Positions 3,257 through 59,330 of a DNA stretch of 64,000 bases are shown here, piece after piece (position 1 is the first letter of the stretch; every line of letters begins with the position of its first letter). Position numbers and translations under genes: made by a program. A model generated the notes under the pieces. It saw only the letters and a list, made by a program, of their open reading frames with translations. It did no database searches and was not told the origin of the DNA. Source of the DNA: Escherichia phage MIZ6. The stretch lies in the sequence record OR192075.1; one strand, 5' to 3'.

Positions 3257-3565
3257 TTATAAAGTTTGACCGTTGTTTTTCGCGTAATGCTGAATGCGTG
3301 CTTGATCTGCTTCCGCTGGTGATAGATTCCATGCGATCACTACAACTTCTGACGCATCATGATCATTATCACTTACCCAATGATTATGATTCATACAATT
3401 GTTTGCTATCGCGTGAGAAAATGATCTCATTACCGGAGACGTATAATCATAGTAACGGATTTTCAGATTTTCATCAACGTACAAGTAGATCGTATACGGC
3501 TTATATTCAGTAACCAGTAACAGACAGTTACGCAATTCTGGGAAAATCTTTTTAGTTAATTTCAT
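3257..3565 (-). CDS. HxHW-family small protein (paralog 3, divergent)
   Basis: YLYVDENL, NHNHW, VVIAWN; ATG at 3565 with RBS GAGGATTATAAA. Confidence 0.5.
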   Translation of the reverse strand: MKLTKKIFPELRNCLLLVTEYKPYTIYLYVDENLKIRYYDYTSPVMRSFSHAIANNCMNHNHWVSDNDHDASEVVVIAWNLSPAEADQARIQHYAKNNGQTL

Positions 3566-3566
3566 T

Positions 3567-3797
3567 TTATAATCCTCGGTCGCGGCTATAGTACACGGTA
3601 CGCCATACAATTTCATGTTTCGTGTCGCTCCAGCACACGATCTCATTTACTCTTAAATCTTTGTTATCAACAAAAGATGAACATTGTGACGCTTCTTTCA
3701 TCATTTTATCTGCTGTTTTCTCATCAAATACAGCACAGATTTCTTTATACACTCGATAATCTTTGAATTGACTCTGGATACCCATAATTAACACCAT
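3567..3797 (-). CDS. hypothetical protein, paralog family B (with 3745..4008); start uncertain
   Basis: shared FK.YK.Y..I..V....F.EKMM..AS.C.SF motif. Confidence 0.45.
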   Translation of the reverse strand: MVLIMGIQSQFKDYRVYKEICAVFDEKTADKMMKEASQCSSFVDNKDLRVNEIVCWSDTKHEIVWRTVYYSRDRGL

Positions 3798-4008
3798 TCC
3801 AACCAATTGTTTTTGAGAAAACGTTTATCCACTGTTGAGTGTAGCATGTTTCTTTCCATGATACAATACGAGTAGAATAATGGTTTTTGTTTCCAGAAAA
3901 GGACGGGCATTTTGATGCATCTTCCATCATCTTTTCGGCGAACTCTGGTGCGTATACTCGCAGGATCTGTTGATATGCTTTGTATTCTTTAAATTTGCTC
4001 ATAATCAT
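3745..4008 (-). CDS. hypothetical protein, paralog family B
   Basis: ORF; similarity to 3567..3797 product. Confidence 0.5.
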   Translation of the reverse strand: MIMSKFKEYKAYQQILRVYAPEFAEKMMEDASKCPSFSGNKNHYSTRIVSWKETCYTQQWINVFSKTIGWNGVNYGYPESIQRLSSV

Positions 4009-4267
4009 TCACTACCTTATCAGCTTCTTTTGTTGTTTTTACATCAACTGCGATAACTCGTAAAGGTTCGTCATGGTTCCACCAGTGGTCATGAATATCA
4101 GCTTGTGATTTATCACCAAAGGAATCACGAATATCATTTTTACATTTATAGCTAATGTGACCTTCATAGTCAACATAAAGGTAATTATCGAAAATCGGCG
4201 TTTTTAAGATCATACCGAAAAATCTTTCTTTGTGTGTCTTATCCAGCGTTGCAGTAATTCGCATCAT
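3989..4267 (-). CDS. HxHW-family small protein (paralog 4)
   Basis: YLYVDYEGH, IHDHWW, VIAVDV; RBS AAGAGGAA. Confidence 0.55.
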   Translation of the reverse strand: MMRITATLDKTHKERFFGMILKTPIFDNYLYVDYEGHISYKCKNDIRDSFGDKSQADIHDHWWNHDEPLRVIAVDVKTTKEADKVVNDYEQI

Positions 4268-4279
4268 AATATATTCCTC

Positions 4280-4459
4280 TTAGAAAGGGATGGTCATTTC
4301 TTGAGCTTGTACGTTCTCGTTAGGATTAAACTTCATCCAGCCGATATTGTCTACCAGCATATGCACATTTTTATCATATCCTACGTGGGTAGTCAATACT
4401 GTATGTGCTTTACCTTCAATGATGAGTTCCATGTACTTCTGAACTTCGATAGCTTTCAT
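4280..4459 (-). CDS. small hypothetical protein (59 aa)
   Basis: hand-translated (MKAIEVQKYMELIIEGKAHTV...); promoter cassette and GGAGAATCAAA RBS; not in ORF track. Confidence 0.5.
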   Translation of the reverse strand: MKAIEVQKYMELIIEGKAHTVLTTHVGYDKNVHMLVDNIGWMKFNPNENVQAQEMTIPF

Positions 4460-4523
4460 TTTGATTCTCCGTTTGTTGTCTTGATGGGAGTATCTTACTA
4501 CTCCCTTTAATCATTGTCAACTA

Positions 4524-4691
4524 TTATTTGTTAATTTCTGGTGCGTTGCTCGGATAGTAACCTTCTTTAACACCAAGATATTTTGCAACCATTCCGGTGA
4601 TCTTCTGTGCTACTACGATATCGAATTTCAGGTAGTCTTCACCGTGGTTTGCTACAATGTATGCTTCGCATTCTGCTTTAGTCTGGAACAT
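4524..4691 (-). CDS. small hypothetical protein (55 aa), paralog of 206..373
   Basis: hand-translated (MFQTKAECEAYIVANHGEDYLKF...); about 90 percent identical to 206..373 product. Confidence 0.5.
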   Translation of the reverse strand: MFQTKAECEAYIVANHGEDYLKFDIVVAQKITGMVAKYLGVKEGYYPSNAPEINK

Positions 4692-4757
4692 TTTTGATTC
4701 TCCTATCTCGTTGGTATGTGTGCATTATAGGGGATCACCGATCCCCTGTCAACAACT

Positions 4758-5051
4758 TTATAATGCTTTATATGCGTATTTCATAAATTTGTCTGCCACT
4801 TCATTGGCATGTTCAGATTCTACGCCTGATTCGAGAACAATAGCTAGGTCGGTTTCGTCATTCCCGCCGTACCAATGATTTGATGTTCGATTTTTTTCAA
4901 TTGGAAATTGGTCACTTTTATCTGTGCGACAAAATACATCTAAATGCTCGTCGATGTAAAAGATCCAATCTTCATAAAGAATAACGGTATTAGCCAGATT
5001 TTTATTGCCTTCAACGAAAGGTTCGGCTACAAACAAATTAGTATGTTCCAT
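4758..5051 (-). CDS. HxHW-family small protein (paralog 5, degenerate: single His, NHW)
   Basis: FYIDEHLDV, NHWYGG, LAIVLE; ATG at 5051 with RBS GAGGAAAA. Confidence 0.5.
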   Translation of the reverse strand: MEHTNLFVAEPFVEGNKNLANTVILYEDWIFYIDEHLDVFCRTDKSDQFPIEKNRTSNHWYGGNDETDLAIVLESGVESEHANEVADKFMKYAYKAL

Positions 5052-6284: not shown

Positions 6285-6761
6285 TTATTTTTCTTGATGC
6301 TCGCGATCGTACTTTTCGAAATAAAATTCTACTGGCTGGTCGTGGATTGACAGCAAGCCAAAGCGTTTAGCCGCTCGCAATCCCATATTGCGCTGAATGT
6401 ACTTCTGGAAGTTCTCGCGTATACACTTACGCCAGTATTCTAAGCCCATACAGCTTTTATAAAGATTGCATTGCACACACGCCGGATTCATGTTATAAAG
6501 TATATCATGCTCCGGTTTATGCATTCCTACAACCTTATATTTCCATGATCCATCATCATTACGGGCAATTCGTCCATTTTCATCATAGACTACCTTTGAG
6601 CGTCGCAATACTGGTTTGATGTGGTCTGCGTGCCAGCGATCCCCTAGTTCCTCGCCACAATAGGCACAACGTCCACCATATTTCATTTTCAGGATCTGGC
6701 GTTGCTCTTTCTTTGACAATTTTTTAGGTTTAGGGGCTTTCGCCCCTTCATTATCACACAT
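6285..6761 (-). CDS. HNH endonuclease (putative homing endonuclease)
   Basis: CAYCGEEL...HADHIKP...CVQCNLYK HNH/zinc-finger motifs; start overlaps ligase stop. Confidence 0.7.
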   Translation of the reverse strand: MCDNEGAKAPKPKKLSKKEQRQILKMKYGGRCAYCGEELGDRWHADHIKPVLRRSKVVYDENGRIARNDDGSWKYKVVGMHKPEHDILYNMNPACVQCNLYKSCMGLEYWRKCIRENFQKYIQRNMGLRAAKRFGLLSIHDQPVEFYFEKYDREHQEK

Positions 6762-8250
6762 CGAATACCTCTTTTACTGTATTTGCAGTGGTCTTGTCGT
6801 AGCGAATACGTTTGATGATTGGGAGAAATAAAGAGAACTCCGGTTCATCTTCTTTACGTGATTTGCTGCGGATATACCCGTTGCATGTCATCTCAATAAC
6901 TTTTCCAATCAGGTTATGACGGTCAGCCCATAACATTTCTCGGTCGAGTTCATTTCGACGATCGAACGGAATTACACGTTCAGTACCATCATCACCTTTT
7001 TCGGTTGTAGTGTCGGTTAATCCCGATCCGGTGTTAGTCATCATTCGTCCGCACGCACTACGGACAGTAAAACCGCCTACCTTATTGGGGTCTTTACTAT
7101 GCGGATATACATCAACAATTTCCGCGTCGAAGTCAATCACTTCTTTAAATTTAACCTGATCTTTACTACGGCGATCTTCAAATACACCATGTAAATTTTT
7201 AAGGATAATACCTTCTAAGCCCATGTTGACATAACGATGATATACTTCGCGAGCTTCATCGATATTGTTAACTACAGTGTTTTCGATGATCTGAACACGA
7301 GGATCGTTAAGTTCTTCAACAATCTGTTTTAGTTCTTCGAATCGATCTTTATATTGCTTCGTTGCTTTCTCGTTTCCGTAATACACATCACGGTCGATAA
7401 CATCCCAGACAGTGTAAACAATACATTGGGCTTCTTCTTTTGGAATAGTTCCTTTAAGTGATTTGTTGAGGATACCATTTCCGGTCTGACGATCTGCAAC
7501 AACGGATTCTTTCACTGCTTCCGCTACTGGCGTTAATGGCATTTCCTCTTCTTCAAATATCCATGACAGAGTACCATCATAAACGCTTTCAACGAAGTTC
7601 TGCGCTGGTGTTTGCGAAAGGGTAGGCATATATACCAATTCGCCATCTAGAACAATTCCACGGCCTCGTAGACGCTCTAAAACCGCAAACAAATCATCAA
7701 GCCCTTGATAGGTATTACCTGAGCGGGTATAGATTGCTAATGTTTCCCCGTCAATATCAGCCATACCACGAGCGCCATCGCTTTTAAGTTGTGCATACGC
7801 CGGATACTTGATATTAGCAATAGTCTTATCAGAACATGACGATGCAAGGTGGCACGGCTGCTGGGGGATCAGTTTCTTCCATACCTTGTTTGCAGTAGTA
7901 GCGGAACAACCACATTCCAGATCACGATTCAGGACCATCATTGCAACTTTAGCATCATCTTCTGACAAGCAAGTCAGAGTATCGGTAACTAGCTGTAATG
8001 CTGCATTACCAGTTACTTGACGCGTGGCAAGTTTATTTTTAAAGACCTGTAATGCACCGGATAAAGACAATACAGACGAATAGCGAGACGGTTTATCGTA
8101 TTTCTTTACGCCAAACGTAACCTGTTTGCAATATGCCAGATAAAAGCATTCTTTCAGCGTTTCATTGCTCGCGGATTCTTTCAGAATCTTTTCTTTCAGC
8201 GATGTTTTGTCTGTTGCTGCAAGCTGATTAATGATATTAAGAATTGACAT
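6754..8250 (-). CDS. 30: ATP-dependent DNA ligase (T4 gp30-like)
   Basis: KxDG adenylation motif (QLKSDGARG); T4 gp30-like length and C-terminus; ATG at 8250 with RBS GAGGTGAAA. Confidence 0.9.
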   Translation of the reverse strand: MSILNIINQLAATDKTSLKEKILKESASNETLKECFYLAYCKQVTFGVKKYDKPSRYSSVLSLSGALQVFKNKLATRQVTGNAALQLVTDTLTCLSEDDAKVAMMVLNRDLECGCSATTANKVWKKLIPQQPCHLASSCSDKTIANIKYPAYAQLKSDGARGMADIDGETLAIYTRSGNTYQGLDDLFAVLERLRGRGIVLDGELVYMPTLSQTPAQNFVESVYDGTLSWIFEEEEMPLTPVAEAVKESVVADRQTGNGILNKSLKGTIPKEEAQCIVYTVWDVIDRDVYYGNEKATKQYKDRFEELKQIVEELNDPRVQIIENTVVNNIDEAREVYHRYVNMGLEGIILKNLHGVFEDRRSKDQVKFKEVIDFDAEIVDVYPHSKDPNKVGGFTVRSACGRMMTNTGSGLTDTTTEKGDDGTERVIPFDRRNELDREMLWADRHNLIGKVIEMTCNGYIRSKSRKEDEPEFSLFLPIIKRIRYDKTTANTVKEVFDV

Positions 8251-8716
8251 TTTCACCTCGTTTTGTTAAACGTTCACGAATATCATTGAGGATACTACAA
8301 AATTCCGATTCAGTCAATATAGTCTTTAACGGATCAGTTCCACCTATGCTATGACGTAATTTCTTATTTCCGGTAGAGAGTAATGCTTTACAAAATTCTG
8401 GGTTATTCCGTGCCATCGTAACAAATGCCAGATGTACCAGTCTGTAATAATGCTCACTCATTCGATGAATCGGGCGACCCTGAAAATATAACATGTGATT
8501 CTCAATCTTTTCAGTTCTTCCGGTTCTTTTTGCTTTGCCACCGTGCATCAAAAAGATTTCTCTTTGTCTCTGAGGGTTCTTAAATCTTAGCCCCTGTAAA
8601 AATCCTTCTGTGCTGTTAATATCGCAACCAAATAGACGGAATGGTCTTTTATTGAAATTACTCAATTCACCCGATGGATAAGGTCCACCCGCATAGATAT
8701 CAATTTCAGAAGTCAT
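8237..8716 (-). CDS. NADAR (YbiA/DUF1768-like) domain protein
   Basis: GELSNF ... FLQGLRF ... SEHYY motifs resembling E. coli YbiA. Confidence 0.6.
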   Translation of the reverse strand: MTSEIDIYAGGPYPSGELSNFNKRPFRLFGCDINSTEGFLQGLRFKNPQRQREIFLMHGGKAKRTGRTEKIENHMLYFQGRPIHRMSEHYYRLVHLAFVTMARNNPEFCKALLSTGNKKLRHSIGGTDPLKTILTESEFCSILNDIRERLTKRGENVNS

Positions 8717-8870
8717 TGAAACTAATCTCGCTAATCAGAGAGAACGGATCATAATCGTCATTAGGAATATCGATAGTAATCGAATGAGGGTTTACCCATA
8801 CACCAAACTGGTCTTCTTCGGTGAATACTTCGGTATGGATTTCGTGGATGTTTACATTCATAGTTTTCAT
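8706..8870 (-). CDS. small hypothetical protein (54 aa)
   Basis: hand-translated; RBS AAGGAAAT; stop overlaps NADAR start. Confidence 0.45.
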   Translation of the reverse strand: MKTMNVNIHEIHTEVFTEEDQFGVWVNPHSITIDIPNDDYDPFSLISEISFNDF

Positions 8871-8910: not shown

Positions 8911-8942
8911 TAGCCAAAATATAGGCGGGATTATTTCCCGCC
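8911..8942 (-). terminator. putative terminator
   Basis: hairpin GGCGGGATTATTTCCCGCC then T-rich tract on minus strand. Confidence 0.45.
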
Positions 8943-9318: not shown

Positions 9319-9633
9319 TTATTTATAAATTTCGACGATCTGCGCTGGAGTCAGCCCGTCTACATTAATCAGACTATCAAGCCCAAAACTACGGAAACCT
9401 TCAACTGCAATTTCATATACTGGCAAAGATGTTTCTGATTCTTTACGCGGTTTTTCAACATTAGGAACTAACCACTTTTCGTATGTTTCGAAAGGCATCA
9501 GTGCCGGATCTCGCGTGGCGATCATCTCACGGACAGTACCATCTTTCTTAGTAAACTGCAAAGAGTGAGTACCGACCGAAAACATTTTCTTTAGTGCTTC
9601 ACGAAGTGCGATATTATCAACTTGTTCAGTCAT
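9319..9633 (-). CDS. hypothetical protein
   Basis: ORF; ATG at 9633. Confidence 0.5.
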   Translation of the reverse strand: MTEQVDNIALREALKKMFSVGTHSLQFTKKDGTVREMIATRDPALMPFETYEKWLVPNVEKPRKESETSLPVYEIAVEGFRSFGLDSLINVDGLTPAQIVEIYK

Positions 9634-10132
9634 TATCAATACCCTTCAAATCAGTCAATAATGCTTTTGGAATACGCGTGATCGTAATATCTGCATTATT
9701 CAGAATATCAGCCCAATCACGCCCACCATTTCGATCATATGTGTCGCAATAGTATAGATGTTTAATTCCACTGTTTGCAATTGCTTTAGCGCAATCTGGA
9801 CACGGTGAAGCAGTACACCACATACTAGCGCCTTCAATCGATACACCGCTACGTGCAGCAAACAAAATAGCATTTAATTCAGCGTGGATTTCGTTTTTCT
9901 GTGACCATGCGCTATGTTCTGGTCGTTTTTCTGGGATCATTTTGCCGTCATCATCCAGCCAACCGTTTTTATGTGCATGACAGCTACAATTTACTTGCCC
10001 TGCTGGAGTTCCGTTAAATCCAGTAGAAATGATTCGCCCGTCTTTTTCAATTAGTGCGCCTACCTTCCACGAAACGCATTTAGAGTTCTTTGCGATTAGA
10101 TAGGCGATCTGCATGTAAGTTTGTGACAACAT
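9626..10132 (-). CDS. cd: dCMP deaminase
   Basis: HAELNAI and PCPDCA zinc-binding motifs; aligns to T4 Cd N-terminus (QIAYL...SKC.SWKVGA.IEK.GRIISTG.NG.PAG). Confidence 0.9.
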   Translation of the reverse strand: MLSQTYMQIAYLIAKNSKCVSWKVGALIEKDGRIISTGFNGTPAGQVNCSCHAHKNGWLDDDGKMIPEKRPEHSAWSQKNEIHAELNAILFAARSGVSIEGASMWCTASPCPDCAKAIANSGIKHLYYCDTYDRNGGRDWADILNNADITITRIPKALLTDLKGIDND

Positions 10133-56724: not shown

Positions 56725-57753
56725 TTAAAATTTACAATATTTCATAAACCGCATTTTAGCCATCAGACCTTGTACGGTGTTCTCTTTGATATATTCCATG
56801 ATCTGGTCGCGTGTAGCGCCCTCGTCCTGAATCATGGCGTTAACGTCTTTAGAATGCCACGGGCAACGGTCCCACAATACAATCTTTTCCCCTGCATTGA
56901 TAAACTTTTCCAGTCGGTGCATTGTATCGGCAGACCGTGGTTCCGCATCAAGTACAAACACTCGCTGGTCTGGGAAAGGTATTTCATCTAATCCCAAAGT
57001 ACCGCCAGTAATTGCACACCCGTTATCAATAAACAATGAATCGATCGGACCTTCTAAGAAATACACTGGTTTACTCGGATCGGCGCGTTCAAGACCATAG
57101 ACCTTACTCGCTAACTCATGAGTTTTAATCGTCATATATTTGGTCTTTCCGTAATCCTTTCTCAATGCTCGCCCCTGAATGGATTCTATCTTGTTCTCGC
57201 GGTTAAAGATAGGAATCACTAAACGCGGTTCAGGTTGTGGATTCTTGAAAGTATCAGCCTTAATGTGATTTGCTACCTTTTGCCATTCTCTCGTGAAATA
57301 CAGAAGATCCCATTTATCGTGGGGAATGCAACGATCACTGACATACTTTATTATAGGATGATTAGCCGGGAGAGTATCTAACCTCTCACAGAAAGGCAAT
57401 GTTTGCACTTTCTTAATCTCCGGCTTTTCTACCTTTTTCAGTGGCTTGAACGTGGTGTTCTTGTGGTCGCCTTGTTCCTTCCGTCGTTCAATAAGCCATT
57501 CCCTGAATAGGTCCGGCTTATATTGTTTGAGAAATTCACCTAACGGCTGATTGTAGTTACAGTTGAAACAACCGCATCGCAAACTATCCTTATAGGTATA
57601 GATACGGAATCGCGCTTGAGTATGATTTTTCTTTGAGTCACCGCAGATCGGACAACTACAGACCAGCGTAAATGAGCTAGTATGCAACCGTTTAAAATTT
57701 CGTTCGCCGTATATGGCTTTTTCCGCTATTTCATAATCTGCGTAGTAAATCAT
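56725..57753 (-). CDS. 61: DNA primase (T4 gp61-like)
   Basis: 342 aa as T4 gp61; N-terminal CxxC...CxxC zinc ribbon; TOPRIM-like acidic motifs. Confidence 0.88.
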   Translation of the reverse strand: MIYYADYEIAEKAIYGERNFKRLHTSSFTLVCSCPICGDSKKNHTQARFRIYTYKDSLRCGCFNCNYNQPLGEFLKQYKPDLFREWLIERRKEQGDHKNTTFKPLKKVEKPEIKKVQTLPFCERLDTLPANHPIIKYVSDRCIPHDKWDLLYFTREWQKVANHIKADTFKNPQPEPRLVIPIFNRENKIESIQGRALRKDYGKTKYMTIKTHELASKVYGLERADPSKPVYFLEGPIDSLFIDNGCAITGGTLGLDEIPFPDQRVFVLDAEPRSADTMHRLEKFINAGEKIVLWDRCPWHSKDVNAMIQDEGATRDQIMEYIKENTVQGLMAKMRFMKYCKF

Positions 57754-58694: not shown

Positions 58695-59330
58695 TTAATC
58701 TAATGTAGAAAGCAAATGTTTTGTTTCTTTCAGTTGTCGTTCAAGATTTTTGCGTTTCTCTTTAAGTTGCATTTTAGCATTATTTCGCTCTCTTGTAACC
58801 TCTTTATCAATGCTCTTATTCCAGTTATCAATATCAGAATAAGTTGGCATACCCAATTCTAGACCTAATGCGGTTGGATGCAGGGTAACAGTCCATAAAC
58901 CGCTAATCTTCTTAAACAGGTCGGGGTGTAGTGTACTATCTACATCTTCCGGTGTCAACTCTTTTTCTTCTTTCAGTGGTGGGATCTCGTCATATGGTTC
59001 CAGTGCATTTACTTTAATATCAGATACCTCATCAAAGAATCCGCGTACATCCGCAGGAAATACACAAGCAATTTCCCAACCGTGATCACGCAGAGAAGTA
59101 ATATTTTTCACTCCCCCACCATGTGTGATGATTGATGTGACATTGCCATCAAGGTCCACCGAATTTACGAGAAATGGCTTATCGTCTGTCAGATCATTAT
59201 AAAACTGTGCTTCGGCTGTAGTCATCTCCAGAAACAGATCTCGGATCGGACGACCATCAGGTGCGTTACCTTCCTTGAGAGTATAAAAGCGACTTACGAT
59301 CCATTTTGGCGGTAAAGAATTAGCGATCAT
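58695..59330 (-). CDS. hypothetical protein
   Basis: ORF. Confidence 0.5.
   Translation of the reverse strand: MIANSLPPKWIVSRFYTLKEGNAPDGRPIRDLFLEMTTAEAQFYNDLTDDKPFLVNSVDLDGNVTSIITHGGGVKNITSLRDHGWEIACVFPADVRGFFDEVSDIKVNALEPYDEIPPLKEEKELTPEDVDSTLHPDLFKKISGLWTVTLHPTALGLELGMPTYSDIDNWNKSIDKEVTRERNNAKMQLKEKRKNLERQLKETKHLLSTLD

Follow-up and report, generated by a model that had tools for sequence, protein, structure and literature searches.

Gene 30.3 of an RB49-like coliphage: a probable AdfN-type NADAR glycohydrolase encoded next to DNA ligase

The 30.3 gene of Escherichia phage MIZ6 (OR192075.1) encodes the Krischvirus orthologue of the T4 anti-DarT factor AdfN, a protein of NADAR (YbiA) fold limited to the core domain. 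By analogy with T4 it probably (we put the odds at roughly 0.78) acts as a glycohydrolase countering DarT1-type ADP-ribosylation of phage DNA. The gene lies in a 64-kb window (the whole stretch of DNA analysed here, about 40% of the genome; see Table 1), and several points are directly observed: its family and fold, E37 and H122 as conserved residues, a C-terminal helix that is intact, selection of the purifying kind and a conserved position in the gene 31–gene 30 interval. It is on account of orthology, fold and active-site conservation that the function of T4 gp30.3 is taken to be the most likely one for this protein too. Counted against this reading are the 38% identity to the tested T4 protein, an arginine at the position of the phosphate-binding lysine, the dependence of T4 AdfN on a T-even factor for full activity and a sub-threshold match to the general NADAR profile PF08719.

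The phage NADAR family was predicted bioinformatically by de Souza and Aravind (as cited in PMC11543638), with activity in vitro being shown in 2024 and a role against DarTG1 in 2025. T4 gp30.3 takes ADP-ribose off guanine in DNA in vitro and is inactive on thymine-linked ADP-ribose (Cihlova et al., Toxins 2024, PMC11125620). The same protein is AdfN (anti-DarT factor NADAR), which T-even phages need in order to grow on DarTG1 hosts and which suffices for that growth, and homologues of which are stated to occur across T4-like phages (Johannesman et al., Nat Commun 2025, PMC11825919); an independent transposon screen found T4 gp30.3 to be conditionally essential on DarTG1. T4 AdfN requires E36 and K43 for full activity, shows no binding to DarT1 and is fully effective only in cells infected by a T-even phage, a phage factor being needed (PMC11825919). 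A literature search yielded no relevant publication that connects DarTG with Krischvirus or RB49.

By extension from T4, events in an infected cell would run as follows. The 30.3 protein, a putative single-domain NADAR-fold ADP-ribosyl glycohydrolase, would be made early in infection from the transcript of DNA ligase. A host DarT1-type toxin would place ADP-ribose on guanine bases of replicating phage DNA, and the 30.3 protein would cleave the N-glycosidic bond between ADP-ribose and guanine, restoring a replicable template and so permitting phage growth on DarTG1-carrying E. coli. The enzymatic activity, the specificity for guanine as against thymine and the protection from DarTG1 are all carried over from the published work on T4 gp30.3, and the Arg44 variant described below would have to be active in vivo. 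An earlier note on this DNA had suggested reversal of DarT-type DNA ADP-ribosylation and a counter-defence role, a proposal that matches the published experiments on the T4 orthologue and is supported here.

If correct, RB49-like coliphages would share with T-even phages an enzymatic counter-defence of the AdfN type directed at DarTG1, which could be of use when the host range of therapeutic or model phages is to be predicted for DarTG1-positive E. coli. Genes of this kind are already known, the position had been annotated before, and conceptually nothing here is new. The sole fresh detail is a natural lysine-to-arginine change (Arg44), fixed within the clade, at a residue whose arginine mutant in DarG1 behaves differently in vitro and in vivo.

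Table 1. Features in and around gene 30.3 of the window
Feature	Position	Strand	Details
HNH endonuclease ORF	6285..6761	(-)	PF01844; PHROG 2118, E=9e-54; start overlaps ligase stop by 8 nt
ATP-dependent DNA ligase, gene 30 orthologue	6754..8250	(-)	PF01068, E=2.8e-22; PHROG 114, E=1.4e-141
gp30.3/AdfN orthologue CDS	8237..8716	(-)	159 aa; phage-type NADAR domain, no extensions
C-terminal helix (residues 136-157) and tail	8240..8311	(-)	DSSP on model
H122 codon CAT	8351..8353	(-)	last-strand His defining phage (gp30.3) NADARs
R44 codon AGA	8585..8587	(-)	natural Lys-to-Arg variant; equivalent to T4 K43, PnNADAR K50, C7 K95
E37 codon GAA	8606..8608	(-)	equivalent to T4 AdfN E36, P. nicotianae NADAR E43, E. 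coli C7 NADAR E88
54-aa ORF	8706..8870	(-)	PHROG 15277; stop overlaps 30.3 start by 11 nt
Terminator-like GC hairpin and T-run	8924..8942	(-)	just downstream of gene 31; 7-bp stem, 6 GC pairs
Gene 31.1 orthologue	9319..9639	(-)	WYL_2/Sm-like SH3 domain, PF10902, E=1.2e-9

The gene, its family and the NADAR fold

The 30.3 ORF, taken from the open reading frame listing of the window, starts with ATG, and its translation contains GELSNF at residues 16-21, FLQGLRF at 39-45 and SEHYY at 87-91. That a NADAR-like ORF lies here and overlaps the start of a DNA ligase gene, as had been noted previously, is borne out by the ORF coordinates and by the ligase start. Over the surrounding 3.5 kb, identity is 99.9% with Escherichia phages MIZ2 and MIZ3 and 98-99% with a further 57 records, Krischvirus RB49 and JSE among them, which places the window in an RB49-like phage of the family Straboviridae. 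In the JSE record of 2008 the gene is already annotated as 'gp30.3 conserved hypothetical protein'.

The protein matches PF08010 (Phage_30_3) with 130.1 bits (cut-off 36, E=6.5e-38) over profile positions 2-138 of 138, and PHROG 652 with E=9e-45. Of 50,697 phage records searched by tblastn, 1,509 carry the gene, almost all of these being T4-like phages with enterobacterial, Acinetobacter, Aeromonas or Vibrio hosts, and an exhaustive HMMER search of a 1.84-billion-protein library of cluster representatives gave 967 matches at E<=0.001. The column statistics reported below are drawn from this exhaustive search, a smaller homologue search having given 7 relatives, too few for the purpose. An orthologue with 68% identity is present in a Logan contig (L009), comparison with which gives a dN of 0.21, a dS of 1.75 and a ratio of about 0.12 (Nei-Gojobori), a value that is approximate because dS is near saturation. 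The gene is under purifying selection and, given the PF08010 and PHROG 652 matches, the 967 representatives and the dN/dS ratio, is not a chance ORF.

The wider family shows some architectural variety. Metagenomic members include fusions to a calcineurin-like metallophosphoesterase (P0064) and to BspA-type leucine-rich repeats (P0045), proteins with a tandem second gp30.3 domain (P0013, P0014) and several of around 470 amino acids, among them P0018, P0031 and P0067, that share a recurrent N-terminal region of around 310 amino acids with no Pfam match.

A search with the NADAR profile PF08719, which the earlier note had proposed as a check, did not reach threshold (15.6 bits against a gathering score of 35.1, E=0.02), and 38 of 80 relatives likewise gave sub-threshold matches, the best at E=3.5e-6. 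Membership of the NADAR superfamily thus rests on profile–profile and fold evidence. The NCBIfam model 'NADAR family anti-phage protein' was uninformative (14.3 bits against 240). Searched as a single sequence against PDB sequences, the protein found no NADAR, only a spurious match to DltA (E=7e-4), and a family profile was therefore needed: built from 80 gp30.3-family members, this reached E. coli YbiA (2b3w, E=4e-4) and P. nicotianae NADAR (8bau, E=0.08), and hhalign of the same 80-member profile against YbiA gave a probability of 95.7% (E=8.6e-9) over 136 columns. An AlphaFold model from the single sequence was unusable (pLDDT 45) and was replaced by an AlphaFold2 model based on the 80-sequence alignment, with a mean pLDDT of 95.9 and a pTM of 0.90; its top two Foldseek matches were those of the profile search, each with a probability of 1.00. 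Johannesman et al. report the same three structures for T4 AdfN (PMC11825919).

Active-site residues and the Arg44 variant

BLASTP aligns the protein with T4 gp30.3 end to end, at 38% identity over 151 residues (E=8e-30). Of the YbiA/NADAR motifs on which the first identification was based, LSN-F and EGFLQ-L(K/R) are conserved in the family, whereas SEHYY is mostly lineage-specific, with S87 and Y90 alone being common across the gp30.3 family. The most diagnostic residue, H122, was absent from those motifs. It is His in 151 of 153 relatives and is aligned by hhalign with the Glu of YbiA 'KLVEHT', the last-strand residue being Glu in YbiA, Asp in DarG1 and BC4488 and His in phage gp30.3 proteins (PMC11125620, PMC11543638). 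The glutamate at the E37 position, whose counterpart in known NADARs touches the distal ribose (PMC11543638, PMC11825919), is likewise found in 150 of 153 relatives, and the alignments to T4, YbiA and 8bau agree on its placement.

The picture for the third position is different. In T4, P. nicotianae and E. coli C7 NADARs, a lysine coordinates phosphate here (PMC11543638, PMC11825919), and a check of the catalytic residues by alignment, as the earlier note had suggested, upholds E37 and H122 but finds that lysine replaced by Arg44. Lysine occupies the column in 140 of 153 aligned domain sequences and arginine in 9, the remaining 4 differing from both; arginine is common to the Krischvirus cluster (P0001), the 68%-identical relative (P0002) and six more distant sequences, which keep E37 or H122. 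The 30.3 protein has every testable defining feature of the gp30.3 family except strict identity at this lysine. In the C7 NADAR, the corresponding K95R mutant still hydrolyses guanine-linked ADP-ribose (G-ADPr) in vitro, yet it fails to protect cells from the toxicity of DarT1 (PMC11543638), so that Arg44, whilst conservative and of like charge, cannot be assumed to be neutral in vivo.

One consequence might be that the substitution attenuates the protein in vivo, so that the counter-defence would be weak or would not function, much as with the defective allele of RB69. That phage has a natural frameshift in adfN, and loss of the last 15 residues, and with them the C-terminal helix, inactivates its allele (PMC11825919). 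The failure of K95R in cells and the fact that T4 K43A gives partial rescue only (PMC11825919) are in keeping with this, but we consider it highly unlikely: the arginine is fixed across the Krischvirus clade and the 68%-identical relative, at a dN/dS of 0.12, and recurs in the six distant relatives; K95R retains hydrolysis in vitro; and the 30.3 ORF is intact and full length, unlike that of RB69, the last residue of T4 AdfN aligning at residue 150 within an unbroken C-terminal helix.

It is unlikely, too, that the protein is an active NADAR hydrolase whose main natural substrate is something other than DarT1-modified phage DNA, such as guanine-ADP-ribosylated RNA, molecules modified by a different ADP-ribosylating toxin or collateral products made by phage ADP-ribosyltransferases. 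All NADAR families, that of phage T4 included, remove G-ADPr from RNA in vitro (PMC12945103), the authors of the AdfN study speculate on detoxification of other DNA- or RNA-ADP-ribosylating defences (PMC11825919), and the Arg44 variant together with 38% identity leaves room for shifted specificity. Against this, resistance to DarTG1 is the only in vivo phenotype known for the gp30.3 family, and no homologue of the Alt-type ADP-ribosyltransferase was detected near 30.3 in the window, unlike the situation in T4. A distinctly unlikely variant on the AdfN reading is that Arg44 marks a shift in substrate or partner requirement, making the Krischvirus lineage a natural specificity variant of the phage NADARs; examples may be action against a different DarT1 variant, action on RNA G-ADPr or independence from the T-even co-factor. 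Were this the case, the lineage could help to find what tunes AdfN activity in vivo.

Finally, it is extremely improbable that the protein is a YbiA-like housekeeping N-glycosidase of riboflavin-pathway intermediates or that it inhibits another defence by non-enzymatic means, as has been reported for a phage NADAR acting without catalysis against Retron-Eco1. The glutamate that defines the YbiA family is a histidine in 30.3, and the catalytic positions are near-invariant across the gp30.3 family, which argues for catalysis. The T4 orthologue needs E36 and K43 for full function.

Gene order and the overlap with DNA ligase

The genes run in the order 54-aa ORF, 30.3, ligase, HNH. The ligase is a protein of 500 amino acids with 41% identity to that of T4, and whilst the ORF extends mechanically to a GTG at 8256 (6754..8256, minus strand), its real start is likely to be the ATG at 8250, this being preceded by a GAGG Shine–Dalgarno sequence (8259..8256) and being the start annotated in JSE. 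The stop codon of 30.3 (8239..8237) lies 14 nt inside the ligase coding sequence (20 nt with the GTG start), and the 14-nt overlap is seen also in the JSE annotation and in contig L009. The final nine residues of the 30.3 protein, TKRGENVNS, run past the end of T4 AdfN, are encoded by the ribosome-binding region and first codons of the ligase gene and are modelled with lower confidence (block mean 77). In the Krischvirus clade the 3′ end of 30.3 has become fused to the translation start of ligase.

The hairpin separates gene 31 from the 54-aa ORF, 30.3 and ligase, although it is a pattern match of a kind no more frequent than in shuffled sequences; a promoter scan around 30.3 likewise found sites no more numerous than in shuffled sequence. 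As read from the sequence, the hairpin after gene 31 and the chain of overlapping stops and starts suggest a single expression unit made up of the 54-aa ORF, 30.3, ligase and the HNH gene that follows. The 54-aa ORF has no Pfam or NCBIfam match but is found in the same arrangement in JSE and L009, with the same 11-nt overlap with the 30.3 start in the latter. It is less constrained than 30.3 (dN 0.61, dS 1.35), a conserved C-terminal 'IPNDDYDP(F/L)SLI' contrasting with a fast-evolving remainder. As a tightly coupled neighbour it might merit attention, given the need of T4 AdfN for a phage co-factor. Some close relatives (MIZ2/MIZ3 and KMB43) match the 3.5-kb region in two to three pieces spread over 5-5.4 kb, pointing to extra insertions around ligase and suggesting homing-endonuclease traffic at the locus. 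The gene 31.1 orthologue is labelled 'tail fiber protein' in several relatives, which looks like annotation drift.

In T4, the corresponding block reads cd, 31.2, 31.1, 31, rIII, 30.9 to 30.4, 30.3, 30.2, 30.1, 30 and alt. By tblastn only cd, 31.1, 30.3 and 30 have counterparts in the window, with gene 31 identified via PHROG 931, so that 30.3 has been kept where most of its T4 neighbours have not, and it is the absence of 30.1 and 30.2 that brings it directly against ligase.

The earlier note had taken adjacency to ligase as a hint of a DNA-repair accessory, and the 14-nt overlap, conserved in L009, does imply co-transcription and possibly coupled translation. A comparison of contexts in six phage lineages leads us to reject a repair role. 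Two genes (30.2 and 30.1) lie between 30.3 and ligase in T4, four in RB16 and one in an Acinetobacter phage; in Aeromonas phage 25 the 30.3-family gene is surrounded by a cluster of tRNA genes and in Sinorhizobium phage phiM9 it adjoins a DinG-like helicase gene, with no ligase nearby in either. The variable distance indicates that adjacency reflects inherited gene order and is not evidence of joint function. In addition, glycohydrolysis by NADARs restores the intact base and leaves no nick to seal (PMC11543638), and a protein acting physically or functionally with the ligase is hardly credible. The phiM9 layout (L007; 2603..2962 and 3340..4920), in which the gp30.3-family gene is two genes upstream of the helicase gene, recalls the arrangement in E. 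coli (L008), whose chromosome has ybiA beside dinG-ybiB in divergent orientation.

Comparison with known NADAR systems and other anti-DarT factors

T4 encodes further anti-DarT factors. No homologue of Tk.4 (AdfM, a macrodomain anti-DarTG2 factor; HIDEN-SEQ preprint) was found anywhere in the 64-kb window, nor was one of gp61.2 (AdfA), although gene 61 (primase) is present with 51% identity to T4 (56725..57753, minus strand). Upstream of gene 61, close to the position of T4 gp61.2/AdfA (208 amino acids), is an ORF of 211 amino acids (58695..59330, minus strand) that belongs to a different PHROG (16187 versus 3781) and has no tblastn similarity to AdfA; it could be a positional analogue or a simple replacement.

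Amongst characterised NADARs, DarG1 is the antitoxin of DarTG1 (E. coli C7; G. lovleyi 8bat; Schuller et al., Mol Cell 2023, PMC11543638). The 30.3 protein is an orphan relative and not a DarG1: the gene is flanked by the 54-aa ORF and DNA ligase rather than a DarT toxin gene, and the protein lacks the N-terminal extension and has His in place of the catalytic Asp (D171) and Arg in place of Lys95. E. coli YbiA (2b3w) is the NADAR N-glycosidase of riboflavin damage control. It is about 20% identical to the 30.3 protein, differs from it in the last-strand Glu, and is found in a chromosomal housekeeping or SOS-linked context, whereas 30.3 is an early gene of a lytic phage. AdfN-Bas32 and AdfN-Bas60 (T5-like and Vequintavirinae phages) are, like 30.3, phage-encoded orphan NADARs and counter DarTG1, but they are described as members of other NADAR clades that need no phage co-factor (PMC11825919).

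The nearest known system is T4 AdfN. Both proteins belong to PF08010 and PHROG 652, are 38% identical over their whole length and comprise the core domain without an N-terminal extension; both have the Glu (E36/E37), the last-strand His (H123/H122) and an intact C-terminal helix; and both are encoded in the gene 31–gene 30 interval of a Straboviridae genome. The carrier here is RB49-like, and RB49 uses unmodified cytosine. Where T4 AdfN has Lys43 the 30.3 protein has Arg44, together with a nine-residue C-terminal tail derived from the ligase overlap, and where T4 has 30.2 and 30.1 before ligase the window has neither, 30.3 abutting ligase on one side and, on the other, a 54-aa ORF unrelated to the T4 gene upstream of 30.3.
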